A DNA stretch of 14,557 nucleotides from a virus. The position numbers and the translations under genes are program-made. Below are positions 4,421 to 14,529 of this stretch, one piece after another (the first letter of the stretch is position 1; every line of letters starts with the position of its first letter). The stretch lies in UHGV virus genome UHGV-1341758. One strand, 5' to 3'. The notes beneath the pieces are model-generated. The model saw only the letters and a program-made list of their open reading frames with translations, was not told where the DNA came from and did no database searches.

Positions 4421-4660
4421 AGAACAACCCATTATCAAATACAAGGCCCGACATGAAAACGCCAGAAAAAGGCATTTTCGGACACTTTCATGTCGGACAT
4501 TTATGAATGCAATATTAAAAAAAAACAAAAAGTTATATTCGAGAAGTACCGACACGATTTTCCCTGAAAAATTTTCATAAATAGTGAAAAACCGCGAGGT
4601 CGCCGCCCCGTAACCTGTCGGATCGCCGGAAAGGACCCGCAAAATGATAATAATTATCAT
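4421..4660 (-). other. cos packaging site: cosB (R-like sites plus AT-rich IHF-like spacer), cosN, and a putative cosQ side
   Basis: Minus-strand sequence upstream of Nu1 reads GGGCGGCGACCTCGCGGTTTTTCACTATTTATGAAAATTTT, almost identical to the lambda left end/cosN as recalled. Between cosN and Nu1 are repeated TGTCGG/TGTCCGA motifs (about 4446-4457, 4472-4502, 4541-4557) flanking an AT-rich block (about 4501-4540), the R3-I1-R2-R1 layout of lambda cosB. Confidence 0.8.
4597..4608 (-). other. cosN 12-nt cohesive-end sequence (GGGCGGCGACCT on the minus strand)
   Basis: Exact match to the lambda 12-nt cohesive end (recalled), in the expected position and orientation relative to Nu1. Confidence 0.8.
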
Positions 4661-4807: not shown

Positions 4808-5041
4808 ATGTCAACGAAGAACAGAACCCGCAGAACAACAACCCGCAACATCCGCTTTCCTAACCAAATGATTGAACAAATTAACATCGCTCTTGATCAA
4901 AAAGGGTCCGGGAATTTCTCAGCCTGGGTCATTGAAGCCTGCCGCCGGAGACTGTGCTCAGAAAAAAGAGTTTCTCCTGAAGCAAACAAAGAAAAGAGTG
5001 ACATTACTGAATTGCTCAGAAAACAGATCAGACCAGATTGA
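4808..5041 (+). CDS. Small basic protein with ribbon-helix-helix-like N-terminus (possibly DUF3950/YlcI-like); accessory gene on the strand opposite the late operon
   Basis: 77-aa ORF with RNIRFPNQMIEQINIAL, a beta-strand-then-helix pattern typical of RHH DNA-binding proteins. It sits between cos and the lysis genes, opposite in orientation to the late operon. Family assignment is from memory only. Confidence 0.55.
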   Translation: MSTKNRTRRTTTRNIRFPNQMIEQINIALDQKGSGNFSAWVIEACRRRLCSEKRVSPEANKEKSDITELLRKQIRPD

Positions 5042-5097
5042 AGCAATTTAGATAATCGTGCAGACTACGCCCCTCATATCACATGGAAGGTACTACA

Positions 5098-5508
5098 ATG
5101 GCTCAGGTTGCCATTTTTAAACAAATATTCGATAAAGTGCGAAATAATTTAAACTATCACTGGTTTTATTCTGAACTAAAACGTCACAATGTCTCACATT
5201 ACATTTACTATTTAGCTACAGAGAATATTCATCTTGTTCTTGAAAACGATAATACGGTTTTAATAAAAGGACAGGGTAAGGTTGTAAATGTAAGATTTTC
5301 AAAAAATAAATGCCTTATAGAAGCCACCTTAAAAGGATTCAAATCAGGAGAGTTATCATTTTACGAATACAGGAAAAATCTTGCTACAGCAGGGGTTTTC
5401 AGATGGATTACAAATATCCACGAAAACAAAAGGTATTACTATACCTTTGATAATTCATTACTCTTTACTGAGAACATTCAGAACACTACACAAATATTTC
5501 CGCACTAA
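5098..5508 (+). CDS. AT-rich moron protein, possibly DUF1398 (YbcV/YdfO-like); function unknown
   Basis: Coding region is visibly AT-rich (roughly 30-35% GC by eye) against about 50% in the flanks. GGAAGG sits 7 nt upstream of ATG at 5098, favouring this start (136 aa) over the ORF-track start at 5083. Opposite strand to the late genes. Family assignment is from memory. Confidence 0.6.
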
Positions 5509-5764
5509 ATCATAACGTCCGGTTTCTTCCGTGCCAGAACCGGACTCGCTGGCATGATGAAATATGTGTACCCGGTAACCCCGGTGTGCATCGTTTTTGA
5601 TTATTCCCGCACACTCGCGCAGAAGGAGTTCCCCGTCGGGCTACGGTCTCTGTTAATACGGGAATACGGCGACGATACAGCGCATGATGTGTCAGGCTTG
5701 AATACCTTTATCCTTTAAAAGGGATATCAGTTAAGTTATCCCGTGTAGGGTATAAACCATTATC

Positions 5765-7502: not shown

Positions 7503-7530
7503 TTTATTTAACGAGTGCATTTATCCATCG

Positions 7531-7570
7531 TTGAGTCAAATTTACCCAACTTTATTCAAAAAGTCAATAT
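7531..7570 (-). promoter_or_regulatory. Late promoter pR' with overlapping Q-utilisation (qut) site
   Basis: Minus strand reads TTGACT-TTTTGAATAAAGTTGGG-TAAATT-TGACTCAACGATGG. This is -35 TTGACT (7567-7562), 17-bp spacer, -10 TAAATT (7544-7539), nearly identical to the lambda pR'/qut region as recalled, and sits just downstream of Q. Confidence 0.75.
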
Positions 7571-9696: not shown

Positions 9697-9865
9697 CGTC
9701 TTCTTCCTCGTACATTGAGCTATTCGGATCGCTCATCAGTTCTGCGCAGCAGTGCTCACACACGTGAACTTCCAGCACATGCAGCTTCTGACCGCAGTTA
9801 GCGCACGTTAAAGCCCGCTCGACGCTTTCTTTCTGGTATTGAAGGGATTGGGATGGGCTAAGCAT
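9689..9865 (-). CDS. ninF: NinF (small zinc-ribbon protein); absent from the ORF track because it is under the length cutoff
   Basis: Manual minus-strand translation gives a 58-aa protein, [58 protein letters not shown], close to recalled lambda NinF. CxxC...CxxCC cysteine pattern. TAATG overlap with the upstream gene and an 8-nt overlap with NinG. Confidence 0.75.
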
Positions 9866-10230
9866 TATTGGATTCTCTGCATCATGAGAAAGACAATCAT
9901 GGCGGCGCGGAGGGGATTTTCATGTATAGCTCGCTTAGATTTACAGTAGTCCACACCGCGTGCACCCCACTCGTCTTCATCGAGATTGATAATGCTAATC
10001 CTGTATTTTTCAATAATCGGCCATGCGTCTGCTGGGTTTGCGCATGGGTTAAAGGATCCGCGCTCAACTTCTACTTCAACTGCGTCTCCGTTTACAATGT
10101 CTCCCTCAAATGAGACAAACACCATATCGCCATTCTCACCTTCTTTGTAATCCGGTGATCCGTTATGAATGGCTTCGAATACCGCCACGTTAATTTCAAA
10201 ATCACTTAACTGTGAATAATCCATTGTCAT
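9865..10230 (-). CDS. Acidic hypothetical protein between NinE and NinF (position matches P22 NinX)
   Basis: ORF 9865-10266 in the track. ATG at 10230-10228 forms an ATGA overlap with the NinE stop, so [15 protein letters not shown]... (121 aa) is the likely product. No recognisable motif; the NinX label is by gene order only. Confidence 0.5.
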
Positions 10231-10403
10231 TTCCTCGCACGATATCTTAGCCACCGGATATCCCACAGGTGAGCTGTGTAATTGAAGGTTTTTACGTCAG
10301 ATTCTTTTGGGATTGGCTTGCGTTTATTTCTGGAGCGTTTCGTTGGAAGGTATTTGCAGTTTTCGCAGATGATGTCGGTGAAACTTCGTCGCTGTCGCCT
10401 CAT
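10227..10403 (-). CDS. ninE: NinE
   Basis: From the internal Met at 10403 the 58-aa product [58 protein letters not shown] matches recalled lambda NinE. ATGA overlap with the methyltransferase stop. Confidence 0.8.
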
Positions 10404-10927
10404 GCCGCCCTCCTGACGCCCTGCCCGATCGCCATCAATGCCGCTTTGGATACGGTAGTAAACATCCGTCGAGGACTGATGAACGGTCGCCAAATCAGCA
10501 GCATGGAGCCTTTGCTGTTTCCCTTCTTCTCCAGCCCTGTCGATGGTTCGATAAAATTAATCCGTCCATCAGTGATAATGCGAACTTCGTCGACACTCTC
10601 CAGAGCCTTGCTGAACCATCCGACTGACATATCCTCTGGCACAAGCATAACTACCGTCTGTCGCTGTTGTATGCACTGCTCAGCGGCTTTTTCCACCCAC
10701 GGCCTGATATTGCTGTACGGTGGGTTATTCCAGATTGCACCGTGGCTTACCCACTCAGAATTGAGCGCGTCGTCGGCCTCAGTTAGCCAGTGAGCACACA
10801 GAGCATTTTTGTCGCTCGCTGCCGAATCCAGCCAGAATCCAAACTCAATATCCAGTGCATCAAAAAGCCAAAGCGGCGTTTGCCAGCAGTCCTTGTCGTG
10901 TGCTGGCGTATTTGATTTGATAGTCAT
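10400..10927 (-). CDS. Phage orphan N6-adenine DNA methyltransferase (Dam-like)
   Basis: Contains WNNPPYS (motif IV, (D/N)PP(Y/F), of N6-adenine methyltransferases) and an N-terminal [13 protein letters not shown]...FWLDSAAS segment typical of small phage adenine MTases. ATG at 10927 gives ATGA coupling to NinB (175 aa); the track start at 10987 is an alternative. Confidence 0.85.
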
Positions 10928-11367
10928 GCAGCCCGATATCCCCATCGCGCTTTCCATTCGAGAGCCAGTCGCGCTTCGTCTGACCACTTAACGCCACGTT
11001 CTGTACCGAATGCCTGTATAAGCTCTAATAGCTCCGCAAATTCGCCTACCCGCATCCTGCTGGTTGACTGGCCTATTACCACAAAGCCATTCCCGGCAAG
11101 GTTAGGAACAACGTCCTGCTGCTTTAAGGCTGCGGTAAACACACACTTCCAGCTTTCTGCATCCAGCCAGCGACCATGCCATTCAACCTGACGCGAGACG
11201 TCACCTAAGCAGGCCCATAGCTTTCTGTTTTGGTCTAAGCTGCGGTTGCGTTCCTGAATGGTTACTACGATTGGCTTGGTTGGGTCTGGAAGGATTTGCT
11301 GGATAGCTTGAATGGCGTTCTGCTGATGAATGGGGCTTCTTAGTTCAAACGTTAGTTTCCTCACCAT
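10924..11367 (-). CDS. ninB: NinB (Orf-family recombination mediator)
   Basis: 147-aa ORF matching recalled lambda NinB (..KLTFE(L/I)RSP.HQQNAI.A.QQILPDPTKPIVVTIQERNRSLDQNRKLWACLGDVSRQVEWHGRWLDAESWKC...). Confidence 0.9.
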   Translation of the reverse strand: MVRKLTFELRSPIHQQNAIQAIQQILPDPTKPIVVTIQERNRSLDQNRKLWACLGDVSRQVEWHGRWLDAESWKCVFTAALKQQDVVPNLAGNGFVVIGQSTSRMRVGEFAELLELIQAFGTERGVKWSDEARLALEWKARWGYRAA

Positions 11368-11511: not shown

Positions 11512-11844
11512 TCACTCCTTCACTTTGACTCCAGCAGCGCGGATGTTTTCCTCATAAGCATCCATTGCATCGCCGAAGCCATTGGAATAATCAACAGTAA
11601 ACCCTTTGGTTAATGCTTCTCTGCTGTCGATAAACTTTGGCGCGGTTATTTCAATAGCTGCTCGCGATGCCTGCCACGTTTGCCAGTGGCCTTGAACATC
11701 GTCCATCACGTATTGACCACCAATATTACCGCTGCCAATTTCATGGTGATTTTCAGGGTAACGGATAAGGTCTGAGGATTCGCCTCCACGTCGCAACCAA
11801 CTTTCTTCAAACTGCTTTCTTGATTCGTCCATATTCCTCTCCAT
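11512..11844 (-). CDS. Hypothetical protein (110 aa)
   Basis: ORF in the track (11512-11850, GTG). ATG at 11844-11842 overlaps the stop of the upstream 66-aa gene (TGATG), suggesting the coupled start. No recognisable motifs. Confidence 0.6.
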   Translation of the reverse strand: MERNMDESRKQFEESWLRRGGESSDLIRYPENHHEIGSGNIGGQYVMDDVQGHWQTWQASRAAIEITAPKFIDSREALTKGFTVDYSNGFGDAMDAYEENIRAAGVKVKE

Positions 11845-12044
11845 CACCACTCATTTTTAAGTAAGCGCCACACAGCCTTTCCGCGCGGGAATATCCTGTC
11901 GATATTCTTCTGCATGTTATTTGCCATCACCTTTCGATAGTCATTGCGATAGGGCTTGTTGCGAATAACTTTTGCCATCTTGTAATGACGTCTTAATCGT
12001 TCTTTTGTCCACCCGTCGTAAAGAACAACAATCGTTGTCATCAT
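11844..12044 (-). CDS. Small basic hypothetical protein (66 aa)
   Basis: ORF with GGAGAG Shine-Dalgarno-like sequence just upstream of its ATG; very K/R-rich. Compactly placed between two other small genes. Confidence 0.55.
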   Translation of the reverse strand: MMTTIVVLYDGWTKERLRRHYKMAKVIRNKPYRNDYRKVMANNMQKNIDRIFPRGKAVWRLLKNEW

Positions 12045-12069
12045 TTCTCTCCATTAGTGTGCTGGGGTG

Positions 12070-12258
12070 TTAGGCCTGTACGATTTCACATTTTCTTATG
12101 CGGAGACCGTTCTCATCATCTTGTAAATCAATAGCTCTCTGAGCATCCTCTTTAGTGCGGAATACCGCCTTAACTTCACCGTATTTTTCATGCGCTACTG
12201 AAACAAGCCCATCTTCATCGTCGATGATTGCGTAAAACATATATTCGCTGTTACTCAT
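12070..12258 (-). CDS. Small hypothetical protein (62 aa)
   Basis: ORF preceded by GAGGTGA and located 27 nt downstream of the terminator that follows the helicase gene; no recognisable motifs. Confidence 0.55.
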   Translation of the reverse strand: MSNSEYMFYAIIDDEDGLVSVAHEKYGEVKAVFRTKEDAQRAIDLQDDENGLRIRKCEIVQA

Positions 12259-12284: not shown

Positions 12285-12317
12285 CAAATAAAAAGGCCTG
12301 CGATTACCAGCAGGCCT
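12285..12317 (-). terminator. Strong intrinsic terminator downstream of the helicase gene (tR2-equivalent position)
   Basis: Minus strand: AGGCCTGC-TGGTAATC-GCAGGCCT, a perfect 8-bp GC-rich stem with 8-nt loop, followed by TTTTTATTT. Confidence 0.65.
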
Positions 12318-12345: not shown

Positions 12346-13608
12346 TCAGAATCCTCCTTTCTTCTTGGACTGCGGTTCCTCGCGTTCACGGCGGCGCATT
12401 TCAGCAGACTGTTGGTCTGTGTCATAAATAGCGCCATTTGCCTGAATGCAATACACCGTGCCGGTATTGCCATGACGATTGAGGCGAAGGATTAGTTCGG
12501 TTTCACCAGGAGGAACGCTGTCATCAAAAGCACCTTCCCGATGGATCCCAACCCAATAATCGCAATCCTGTTCAATCTGCCCTGTATCTCGTGAGTCACT
12601 TGGTAATGGGCGTTTATTGGTTCGGCTTTCCAGTGCGCGGTTAAGCTGCGTCAGAAGCACAACAACGCAATCAAGCTCTTTGGCAAGGTTCTTCAGTCCT
12701 TTGGTGATCATGCCGTAAGCAAGGTCGTTACGATCGGCCTTCTCAGCGGTCATTAGTGTCAGGTAATCGACCAGAATCATCCCAACACATCCTTTTTCTC
12801 GCTTGATTCGACGGCTTTCGCTGACGATTTGAGCCAGAGATAATCCCGGCGTGTCGTCGATGTAAAGCAGGTCGATTTCACTCAAGCGATTGGCTGTTTC
12901 GATCGCCCTGTTGAAGTCACCATCGTAATCACCCTGATAGCCGTCATCGGCGTCATTTGTCGCCGGAAGGTAAAAAATATTCGGGTTAACACCAGACTTC
13001 TGCCCTACCAGTTTTTCCAGTATCTGGTCACCGGGCATTTCAAGGCTGAACATCAGAGCGGGCTTTTTCTCATGCACTGCGCAGTTGATTGCCATCTGGC
13101 TGTATAGCGTCGTTTTCCCCATCTTAGGGCGAGCGCCAATGACAAACAGAGAGCCTTTCACCAGACCTTTCGGTGACAGCATCCTGTCCAGAGATGGGAT
13201 CCCTGTGCTCATTCCTCGTTGTTCGCCTGACGGGTCAAATCGCTTCTCAAGGTCGCTAACCCAGTCTTCCATGACCTCACCAAATGAGCGAAGGCCGCGA
13301 CGCGATCCGGTTTTTGCATGGTCTGTCAGTTGCGTGAAAATCGCCTGAATAGCTTCGTACTTCTGCGTTGCAGTCATTCCGTTGCGGGAATAGAGCAATT
13401 CCGTCGCTTCAGTCATGCGGTTGATGGCGTAGCGTTCCATTGCGGTTTCACGAACCTGCATTGCATAGGCAACGATGTTTGCTGCGCTTGGCGTGTTCTT
13501 TGCGATCTCAGCGATATAAGCAAAACCGCCAACAGACGCCGTTAACGATTTGCGCTCCAGTTCATCGAAAAGCGTCAGCCCATCTACTGGCTTTTGCTCC
13601 CGGTGCAT
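12346..13608 (-). CDS. DnaB-family replicative helicase, C-terminal ~420 residues (gene appears frameshifted; see 13614-13778)
   Basis: Walker A GARPKMGKT, Walker B-like ILVDYLTLM, and DnaB-like SVGGFAYIAEIAKNTPSAANI and LTQLNRALESR..RP..SD(L/S)R(E/D)(S/T)G.IEQD.D motifs, compared with recalled E. coli DnaB. Confidence 0.9.
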   Translation of the reverse strand: MHREQKPVDGLTLFDELERKSLTASVGGFAYIAEIAKNTPSAANIVAYAMQVRETAMERYAINRMTEATELLYSRNGMTATQKYEAIQAIFTQLTDHAKTGSRRGLRSFGEVMEDWVSDLEKRFDPSGEQRGMSTGIPSLDRMLSPKGLVKGSLFVIGARPKMGKTTLYSQMAINCAVHEKKPALMFSLEMPGDQILEKLVGQKSGVNPNIFYLPATNDADDGYQGDYDGDFNRAIETANRLSEIDLLYIDDTPGLSLAQIVSESRRIKREKGCVGMILVDYLTLMTAEKADRNDLAYGMITKGLKNLAKELDCVVVLLTQLNRALESRTNKRPLPSDSRDTGQIEQDCDYWVGIHREGAFDDSVPPGETELILRLNRHGNTGTVYCIQANGAIYDTDQQSAEMRRREREEPQSKKKGGF

Positions 13609-13613
13609 TCTGG

Positions 13614-13778
13614 TTATTTCTTCGAAAAGGATTGTGGTCGGCTGTAAAATGAATCAGGCTTCAGCATCGCCAGAACTTTCCGGACGCGCTCACTGCTGTC
13701 ATCATCCAGAAGCAATCCACCAATAACCGCCTGCTCTGCCTCGATGCTATGGGGCGGCGCATAAAAATTATCGGTCAT
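13614..13778 (-). CDS. DnaB-family helicase N-terminal fragment (54 codons), in a different frame from the main helicase ORF
   Basis: Manual translation from ATG at 13778: MTDNFYAPPHSIEAEQAVIGGLLLDDDSSERVRKVLAMLKPDSFYSRPQSFSKK*. PPHSIEAEQ.V.GGL.LD and DDFYTRP match the recalled DnaB N-terminus. Start overlaps the O-like gene stop. Confidence 0.7.
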   Translation of the reverse strand: MTDNFYAPPHSIEAEQAVIGGLLLDDDSSERVRKVLAMLKPDSFYSRPQSFSKK

Positions 13779-14529
13779 CGTGTTCACCCTCACGAACTTT
13801 CAGGTAGGTATTGTCGTTAAGCAGGAAATCAAATCCCTTTTTGTGCCAGACGGTTCCGCGTTGATGGTTTGGGCGTTCTTCGAACATCCATCGGCAATTT
13901 TCGCCTACGTAGCTCAAATAATTTCTCCAGTCCTGCATCGTGAACCCATGCCCGTCAAGCTGGCGGGTTATCACTCCGGCTTTGCGCCAGAACGTTCGGA
14001 TCTGGTTTTTACGCTTGTCATTCAGTGCGCGGATTCTTGGCGCTTCAGGAAGGATTTCGTGGTAAGCATCGACAACATCCTGACAGCTAACGGAAGGTTT
14101 TTTCTTGTCAGACTTTTTGTCTGCTGCGGTACTCTCTAATACGTCAGTATTAGAGATAATATTATTATATTCTTTATCTGTGGTAATTTGCTGGTAATCT
14201 GCTGGTACAGTATTGCTTGCAGGCATTGGTATTGCTGGCTTTGAGGTGGTAATTTGCTGGTAATCTGCTGGTACAAAATTTGACTGATAATCGTCATATT
14301 TCTCTACCGAGAAAACTGAGAATTTACCGTGTGAAACCCAGTCAATCATGCCGAGTTTTTTGAACTTTCTAAGCAGGTACTGAACGCGATCTGGTTTGAG
14401 TCCTGTTTCAAACGCCAGAGAGTTTCTACCGCCAAGTAGCTTCCCTCTGCCTACCAGAATTTCTCCTGCGTCAGTCATTACATACTCAGGCGTATGCTTT
14501 GCTTGAATCGCCACGGGTTTAACAGACAC
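13768..14529 (-). CDS. Replication initiator (lambda O-like / iteron-binding origin protein)
   Basis: 253-aa ORF immediately upstream of the helicase, overlapping its start. Contains in-frame DNA direct repeats (iterons) encoding VPADYQQITT twice, followed by an AT-rich stretch, as in lambda ori inside O. The start codon in the ORF track is GTG at 14529; the first ATG is at 14478. Confidence 0.65.
   Translation of the reverse strand: MSVKPVAIQAKHTPEYVMTDAGEILVGRGKLLGGRNSLAFETGLKPDRVQYLLRKFKKLGMIDWVSHGKFSVFSVEKYDDYQSNFVPADYQQITTSKPAIPMPASNTVPADYQQITTDKEYNNIISNTDVLESTAADKKSDKKKPSVSCQDVVDAYHEILPEAPRIRALNDKRKNQIRTFWRKAGVITRQLDGHGFTMQDWRNYLSYVGENCRWMFEERPNHQRGTVWHKKGFDFLLNDNTYLKVREGEHDDR
14180..14275 (-). 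repeat. Putative phage replication origin iterons inside the O-like gene
   Basis: Perfect 30-bp direct repeat GTGGTAATTTGCTGGTAATCTGCTGGTACA at 14180-14209 and 14246-14275, each made of tandem ~11-bp TGGTAAT(T/C)TGC units, with related GGTATTGCTGGC between. AT-rich block (about 14140-14179) lies on the downstream side. Confidence 0.65.

Follow-up and report, generated by a model that had tools for sequence, protein, structure and literature searches.

Phage adenine methyltransferases of the HP1 Dam and T1 Dam type are orphan enzymes of about 170–180 residues that belong to the PF05869/TIGR01712 family, carry an NPPY motif and have no target-recognition domain. Piekarowicz and Bujnicki in 1999 and Bujnicki et al. 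in 2001 are said to have placed both enzymes in the PF05869 family and to have found that they act on GATC. A gene of this family was analysed here in the virus genome UHGV-1341758, in a stretch of 14,557 nucleotides (the window) that represents part of a lambdoid prophage and is read here on the minus strand. The gene occupies 10400..10927 on that strand, between ninB and ninE, and its product is only 30–45% identical to members of the HP1 Dam and T1 Dam type. A second described enzyme, M.EcoVT2Dam, is called an orphan methyltransferase of the E. coli prophage VT2-Sa that targets 5'-GATC-3' (PMC6602927, citing Radlinska and Bujnicki 2001).

Small phage methyltransferases with an NPP(Y/F/W) motif that lie beside replication genes have been described as copying the orphan regulatory enzyme of the host, by convergence, with GANTC as the target in Alphaproteobacteria and GATC in Gammaproteobacteria (PMC5537653). 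The alphaproteobacterial phage enzymes (about 179 residues, NPPW/F/Y) can be likened by description to the protein from the window, as they are small, orphan, encoded beside replication genes and host-mimicking; they target GANTC, in mimicry of CcrM, whereas the target that mimics Dam is GATC. In laboratory lambda, the slot between ninB and ninE holds ninC and ninD instead. The analysis presented below leads us to conclude that the gene in the window very probably encodes an intact orphan GATC adenine methyltransferase, the same enzyme as M.EcoVT2Dam, carried on a delayed-early nin cassette that supplements host Dam. The analysis itself provides the integrity of the gene, its family, motif and predicted fold, its identity to a VT2-Sakai protein, its operon position and its distribution, while the GATC specificity comes from the literature.

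The methyltransferase gene and its reported target

The reading frame begins with an ATG at 10927 and ends with a TGA at 10402–10400, comprising 175 codons with zero internal stops. Its translation matches PF05869, 'DNA N-6-adenine-methyltransferase (Dam)', with E 6e-65 and 218 bits against a cutoff of 28, across model positions 1–167 of 169; the open reading frame (ORF) is therefore real, far beyond chance expectation. It also matches the NCBIfam equivalog TIGR01712, 'phage N-6-adenine-methyltransferase', with E 1e-79 and 265.9 bits against a cutoff of 97, over positions 1–165 of 165. Both matches are full-length and exceed the curated cutoffs in the search with family hidden Markov models that the original prediction had proposed, and they uphold its assignment of a 175-residue N6-adenine methyltransferase with an NPPY motif, found at residues 68–71 (N68-P69-P70-Y71, catalytic motif IV, codons at 10715..10726 on the minus strand). 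The protein further matches PHROG 111, 'DNA methyltransferase', and its best PADLOC models are those named 'orphan methyltransferase' (oMTase). No cognate restriction endonuclease was found beside the gene, whose neighbours NinB, NinE and NinX match no PADLOC defence model. The Pfam and PADLOC results thus agree with the orphan status that had been proposed.

The protein is identical at 175 of 175 residues to orf32 of VT2-Sakai (NP_050531.1), the sole methyltransferase annotated in that phage. The possibility that M.EcoVT2Dam is another VT2-Sakai gene was considered and rejected, as the rechecked ORFs contain no methyltransferase domain: orf4 is a DUF551 protein, the 2806-residue orf71 has LPD and MuF domains only, and four other small unannotated ORFs have no Pfam match. 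As the sole methyltransferase recognised in VT2-Sakai, orf32 is by elimination M.EcoVT2Dam. The original prediction had held that target specificity is not deducible from the sequence, which proves too pessimistic: because the protein from the window is identical to a characterised enzyme, the specificity can be deduced. On the strength of this identity and of the specificity given in the literature, the enzyme is taken to methylate the adenine of GATC, the same site that host Dam modifies. The frequency of the site in the window informs neither way, as 43 GATC are observed against 56 expected from base composition, with no clear enrichment or avoidance.

The resemblance to VT2-Sakai extends to the neighbouring genes. 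In that phage, ninB, the methyltransferase and ninE follow in the same order with 4-nucleotide overlaps (15892–16437, 16434–16961 and 16958–17140). At the protein level the two methyltransferases do not differ, and the differences lie in the phages that carry them: the window phage has lambda-type cos, Nu1, A, portal and Q, and has no stx genes.

Family, conserved residues and predicted fold

The family is large, with 8784 relatives at E<=0.001 among 1.84 billion cluster representatives. Searches with tblastn placed it in 1908 phage records, whose hosts include Escherichia, Klebsiella, Vibrio, Lactococcus, Gordonia, Campylobacter and Staphylococcus, and in T1-like and many other phages they found homologues of 30–43% identity that are annotated dam. 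An alignment of 41 homologues (59–86% identity) contains 42 invariant columns, including N68-P69-P70-Y71, kept in 41 of 41, and E28-F29-x-F31-x-L33-D34-x-A36, within which G30 is nearly invariant. This second segment (EFGFWLDSA, residues 28–36, codons at 10820..10846 on the minus strand) falls, by the alignment and the predicted model, on strand 1, where motif I sits in other methyltransferases, and may form the S-adenosylmethionine (AdoMet) site.

PDB sequence searches with the protein and with the 41-sequence profile returned zero solved relatives. An AlphaFold2 model built from the 41-homologue alignment (predicted local distance difference test, pLDDT, 88.5; predicted template modelling score, pTM, 0.86) has the alternating strand-helix arrangement of a class I (Rossmann-like) AdoMet-dependent methyltransferase, in which strand 31–36 underlies the invariant segment and strand 64–68 runs into NPPY. 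In fold comparison the model scored highest with PCIF1, a cap adenosine methyltransferase (10.4), followed by M.TaqI (9.5), M.BseCI (9.1), MmeI (8.9) and CamA (8.7), with E. coli Dam (8.0) and T4 Dam (7.4) lower, at about 105 aligned residues each. Foldseek also puts PCIF1 first, and Type I M subunits rank high in the fold comparison. Only 104–107 residues of the model superpose on EcoDam, T4 Dam and DpnM. The 175 residues are predicted to be essentially all catalytic core, with neither a target-recognition domain nor an inserted DNA-recognition domain. By this model the protein is a genuine N6-adenine methyltransferase of class I, consisting of the core with essentially no added domain, and M.TaqI-type enzymes and PCIF1 are nearer to it in predicted fold than E. 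coli Dam is.

The description 'Dam-like' in the original prediction can therefore be kept in part. It is apt for the reported target and for the Pfam name, but not for the family: Pfam reported only PF05869 at E<=0.01, with no match to PF02086 (MethyltransfD12), the family of the alpha-class enzymes E. coli Dam and T4 Dam. These have a DNA-recognition domain, whereas the protein from the window has none, and its motif order is like that of gamma-type enzymes such as M.TaqI and unlike that of the alpha class. The GATC specificity shared with E. coli Dam has been described as convergent (PMC5537653).

The ninB–ninE slot and its surroundings

The order of genes in the window begins with an O-like replication gene, followed by a DnaB-like helicase, and continues with a tR2-like terminator, three small ORFs, ninB, the methyltransferase, ninE, X, F, G, H, I (NinI phosphatase) and Q. 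The methyltransferase gene accordingly has the location of a nin gene, with the replication genes on one side and Q on the other, downstream of tR2 and within a tightly overlapping run. Its upstream neighbour, ninB (Orf recombination mediator; 10924..11367, minus strand; PF05772, E 4e-54), is 92.9% identical in DNA to lambda ninB, and its downstream neighbour, ninE (10227..10403, minus strand; PF05322, E 3e-42), is 95% identical to lambda ninE from the 8th nucleotide. The lambda record and the Pfam matches of the flanking genes agree with the original prediction that the methyltransferase holds the slot occupied in lambda by ninC and ninD. Going from ninB to ninE, homology to lambda breaks off exactly at the NinB stop (window 10924, lambda 41084) and is taken up again 7 nucleotides into ninE (window 10396, lambda 42097), so that the cassette boundaries coincide with gene ends. 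The two cassettes share the ninB stop (ATGA) and the ninE start as bounds and are unrelated in content, that of lambda consisting of a NinC resembling phosphoadenosine phosphosulfate (PAPS) reductase and NinD in 1012 bp, against 527 bp in the window. A P22-type ninX (9865..10230, minus strand; PF10765, E 4e-19) that is absent from lambda forms a second mosaic insert and is joined to ninE by an ATGA at 10230–10227.

The ATGA overlaps predicted on both sides of the methyltransferase are read directly from the sequence, the one at 10924..10927 joining its start to the NinB stop and the one at 10400..10403 joining its stop to the NinE start, both on the minus strand. The further claim, that the module was exchanged with coupling unbroken, fits one side. 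On the ninB side both the window phage and lambda have GGGCTGCATGA, and the same ATGA stands at lambda ninB/ninC. The ninE side is arranged differently: lambda ninD and ninE overlap by 34 nucleotides, and ninE starts with GTG behind AAGGAGG and without ATGA, whereas in the window the overlap is 4 nucleotides and an AGGAGG Shine-Dalgarno sequence inside the 3' end of the methyltransferase gene (10409..10414, minus strand) lies six bases ahead of the ATG. These differences indicate that ninE receives its ribosome-binding site from whichever cassette precedes it. Of the eight junctions between ninB and Q, five have the ATGA arrangement (ninB/methyltransferase, methyltransferase/ninE, ninE/ninX, ninG/ninH and ninI/Q), and ATGA overlaps are a general hallmark of lambdoid nin regions (PMC8022706, citing Kroger and Hobom in 1982 and Cheng et al. 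in 1995); the precise overlap is thus real but expected. Because the sequence upstream of the methyltransferase offers only a weak GGG as ribosome-binding site, translational coupling by ribosomes that re-initiate at the ATGA following ninB is plausible. In public data, the proteins P0002, P0013 and P0117 comprise a methyltransferase-NinE fusion (233 residues, 175 + 58, in 41 member sequences) and NinB-methyltransferase fusions, and in Stx2 phage H60 (AP012530.1) the methyltransferase is annotated as a pseudogene; these variants suggest that frames shift or stops are lost at the ATGA junctions, or that the assemblies contain errors.

The original prediction presented the methyltransferase as an insertion in the nin region; by its frequency, this insertion is not noteworthy. 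A series of wild lambda-like phages carry the 528-nucleotide gene with 100% identity, and in 244 phage records, many of them Stx1- or Stx2-converting, the identity is at least 95%; in the annotated records among the phages listed, it is flanked by ninB throughout and by ninE in most. At the same identity, 1566 of 5426 complete E. coli genomes carry it, in up to 5 copies each. When alleles were compared at 80% or more of the query covered, the methyltransferase cassette was counted in 1540 complete E. coli genomes against 149 for lambda ninC, and in 244 phage records against 17. An unusual insertion was therefore rejected: the methyltransferase allele, about 10 times commoner than lambda ninC/ninD, is the common allele of a mosaic slot, and laboratory lambda has the minority allele. 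The gene is already known, as a characterised and extremely common phage gene in its usual place.

A lambda tR2-type intrinsic terminator, consisting of a stem-loop and a T tract (12294..12317, minus strand), lies inside a 63-nucleotide block that is 95% identical to lambda 40566–40628. In the lambda record this interval is the intergenic gap between ren and ninB, where we take lambda tR2 to sit. No promoter-like site was found on the coding strand between the tR2-like terminator and the methyltransferase. Its position downstream of a lambda-type tR2 leads us to infer delayed-early expression from pR that would depend on N antitermination and would be silent in the repressed lysogen. Prophage methyltransferases were transcriptionally silent in lysogens of E. 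coli ST131 (PMC4659465). The methylomes of a lysogen and a cured strain would probably show no difference, since the gene stands behind tR2 in a pR operon under repression and GATC is already methylated by host Dam. Further along, a promoter-like site at 7567–7539 and a strong terminator at 7505–7477 are positioned like lambda pR' and the 6S terminator.

Several features of the window lie outside this cassette. The DnaB-like helicase gene (12346–13793, minus strand) is frameshifted relative to VT2-Sakai P, with a break near 13634: residues 1–56 are in frame -3 (13793–13626) and residues 49–483 in frame -2 (13653–12349). The cause is a 4-bp deletion (ACAA), and the remaining ORF, starting at 13608, has only 420 residues. 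The prophage may thus be replication-defective, or the helicase sequence may contain an error. Three small ORFs of 62, 66 and 112 residues (11512–12258, minus strand) between the tR2-like terminator and ninB have no counterpart in lambda, and only the 112-residue one matches a family, phrog_343, of unknown function. After Q come S, R and Rz, three plus-strand ORFs, cosN, Nu1, the large terminase subunit A and the portal protein. The plus-strand ORFs (4808–5041, 5083–5508 and 5554–5718) run against the late operon in the interval from Rz to cos, which in lambda holds bor, and look like morons. One is a DUF1398 protein (PF07166, E 3e-43), for which the PHROGs label 'head protein' is doubtful, one matches phrog_949, of unknown function, and one has no match. 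An exact lambda cosN (GGGCGGCGACCT) stands at 4597–4608 on the minus strand, between the lysis genes and Nu1; the window is continuous across cos, as in a prophage or a circular form and unlike a linear virion genome. A tRNA scan found none. The helicase and O-like replication module resembles those of Stx phages, and lambda-like sequence makes up cos, terminase, portal, Q and most nin genes. Coverage of the window reaches 80% in no phage record and in no complete E. coli genome; the window is a new mosaic built from known modules.

Alternatives and the role of the cassette

Several observations weigh against the conclusion that the cassette encodes a working GATC methyltransferase. The specificity hangs on one 2001 study, known second-hand through PMC6602927, and M.EcoVT2Dam was equated with orf32 by elimination. 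The original prediction had named absence of the AdoMet-binding motif on alignment as refuting it; the glycine-rich FxGxG of the canonical motif is indeed missing, with the family-specific EFGFxLDxAA at its structural position, so that the prediction is not refuted in a strict sense. How a 175-residue enzyme lacking a target-recognition domain reads GATC is unexplained, and the protein has no solved relative detectable by sequence. A pseudogene version also exists in an Stx phage (H60), and a gene that is sometimes a pseudogene in Stx phages must be dispensable.

The small size and the lack of a target-recognition domain lead to the thought that the enzyme is an adenine methyltransferase of relaxed, non-specific or otherwise different specificity, comparable to the prophage-borne E. 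coli enzymes M.EcoGI and M.EcoGII. The DNA methyltransferases among its top structural neighbours have 243–550 residues, E. coli prophage methyltransferases are often promiscuous and silent (PMC4659465), and the GANTC target of the alphaproteobacterial phage enzymes indicates that specificity can change. We nevertheless consider this improbable, as the identical protein is reported to be GATC-specific, and M.EcoGI and M.EcoGII are grouped separately from M.EcoVT2 as homologues. The fold comparison raises the different question of whether the true substrate is RNA or single-stranded DNA rather than double-stranded phage DNA, for its closest solved fold, PCIF1, is a cap-adenosine RNA methyltransferase, and ribosomal RNA N6-methyladenosine (m6A) methyltransferases also appear in the fold list. 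Sequence identity to PCIF1 is only 14–17%, however, the DNA enzymes M.TaqI, M.BseCI, MmeI and CamA score almost as high, and characterisation of the identical protein showed a DNA enzyme that acts on GATC; such a substrate is thus scarcely credible. That the gene is a passenger without function, a remnant of nin mosaicism that is inactive or never expressed and has no effect on the phage, would accord with the non-essential nature of the nin genes in lambda (PMC8022706), with the pseudogene and fusion versions (H60; P0002, P0013 and P0117) and with a window prophage that may itself be defective through its frameshifted helicase gene. The ORF is intact, though, and retains every invariant family residue, and identity of at least 95% is held in 1566 genomes and 244 phages within a family of 8784 cluster representatives. 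Intact reading frame and wide conservation together point to purifying selection for function, which makes a passenger very unlikely.

A bolder extension, which we regard as unlikely though somewhat less so than any of these alternatives, starts from the fold ranking of the predicted model and from the lack of both a target-recognition domain and a solved relative detectable by sequence. GATC would be read in a way unseen in DNA methyltransferases, for instance through a flexible hairpin at residues 121–141 or as a dimer; the fold would be linked to that of PCIF1; and, separately, the enzyme would serve to escape SeqA or MutH. If true, the likeness to PCIF1 would tie the phage family to the eukaryotic writer of cap N6,2'-O-dimethyladenosine (m6Am), and the role would be escape from the action of SeqA or MutH on hemimethylated phage DNA, not evasion of restriction.

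The preferred explanation, a GATC methyltransferase that supplements Dam, leads us to propose a model whereby the gene is one of several alternative cassettes in the lambdoid ninB–ninE slot. It would be transcribed from pR after N-mediated readthrough of tR2, delayed-early in lytic growth and silent in the lysogen, and translated within the tightly packed series of overlapping nin genes. The phage enzyme would then supplement limiting host Dam, so that fast-replicating phage DNA would be packaged fully GATC-methylated. In virions of lambda and P22 the DNA is under-methylated at GATC sites, perhaps as replication outruns host Dam (PMC8022706), and a phage GATC methyltransferase made together with the replication and recombination genes would close this gap. 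Fully methylated DNA might benefit the phage against methylation-sensitive, GATC-cutting restriction and in Dam-poor hosts; alternatively, the gain might lie in independence from host Dam status or in escaping host proteins whose substrate is hemimethylated GATC. The expression timing, the translational coupling and the biological role in this model are all inferred, and while supplementation of Dam is the most likely role, its benefit is conjecture.

GATC recognition in the absence of a recognition domain, and what a phage gains from duplicating host Dam, are questions for the whole family and are not specific to the window. The locus is an example of how lambdoid nin regions exchange cassettes cleanly at gene boundaries. 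Its value lies mainly in correct annotation: judging from its sequence, the prophage may be able to methylate its own GATC sites in lytic growth.
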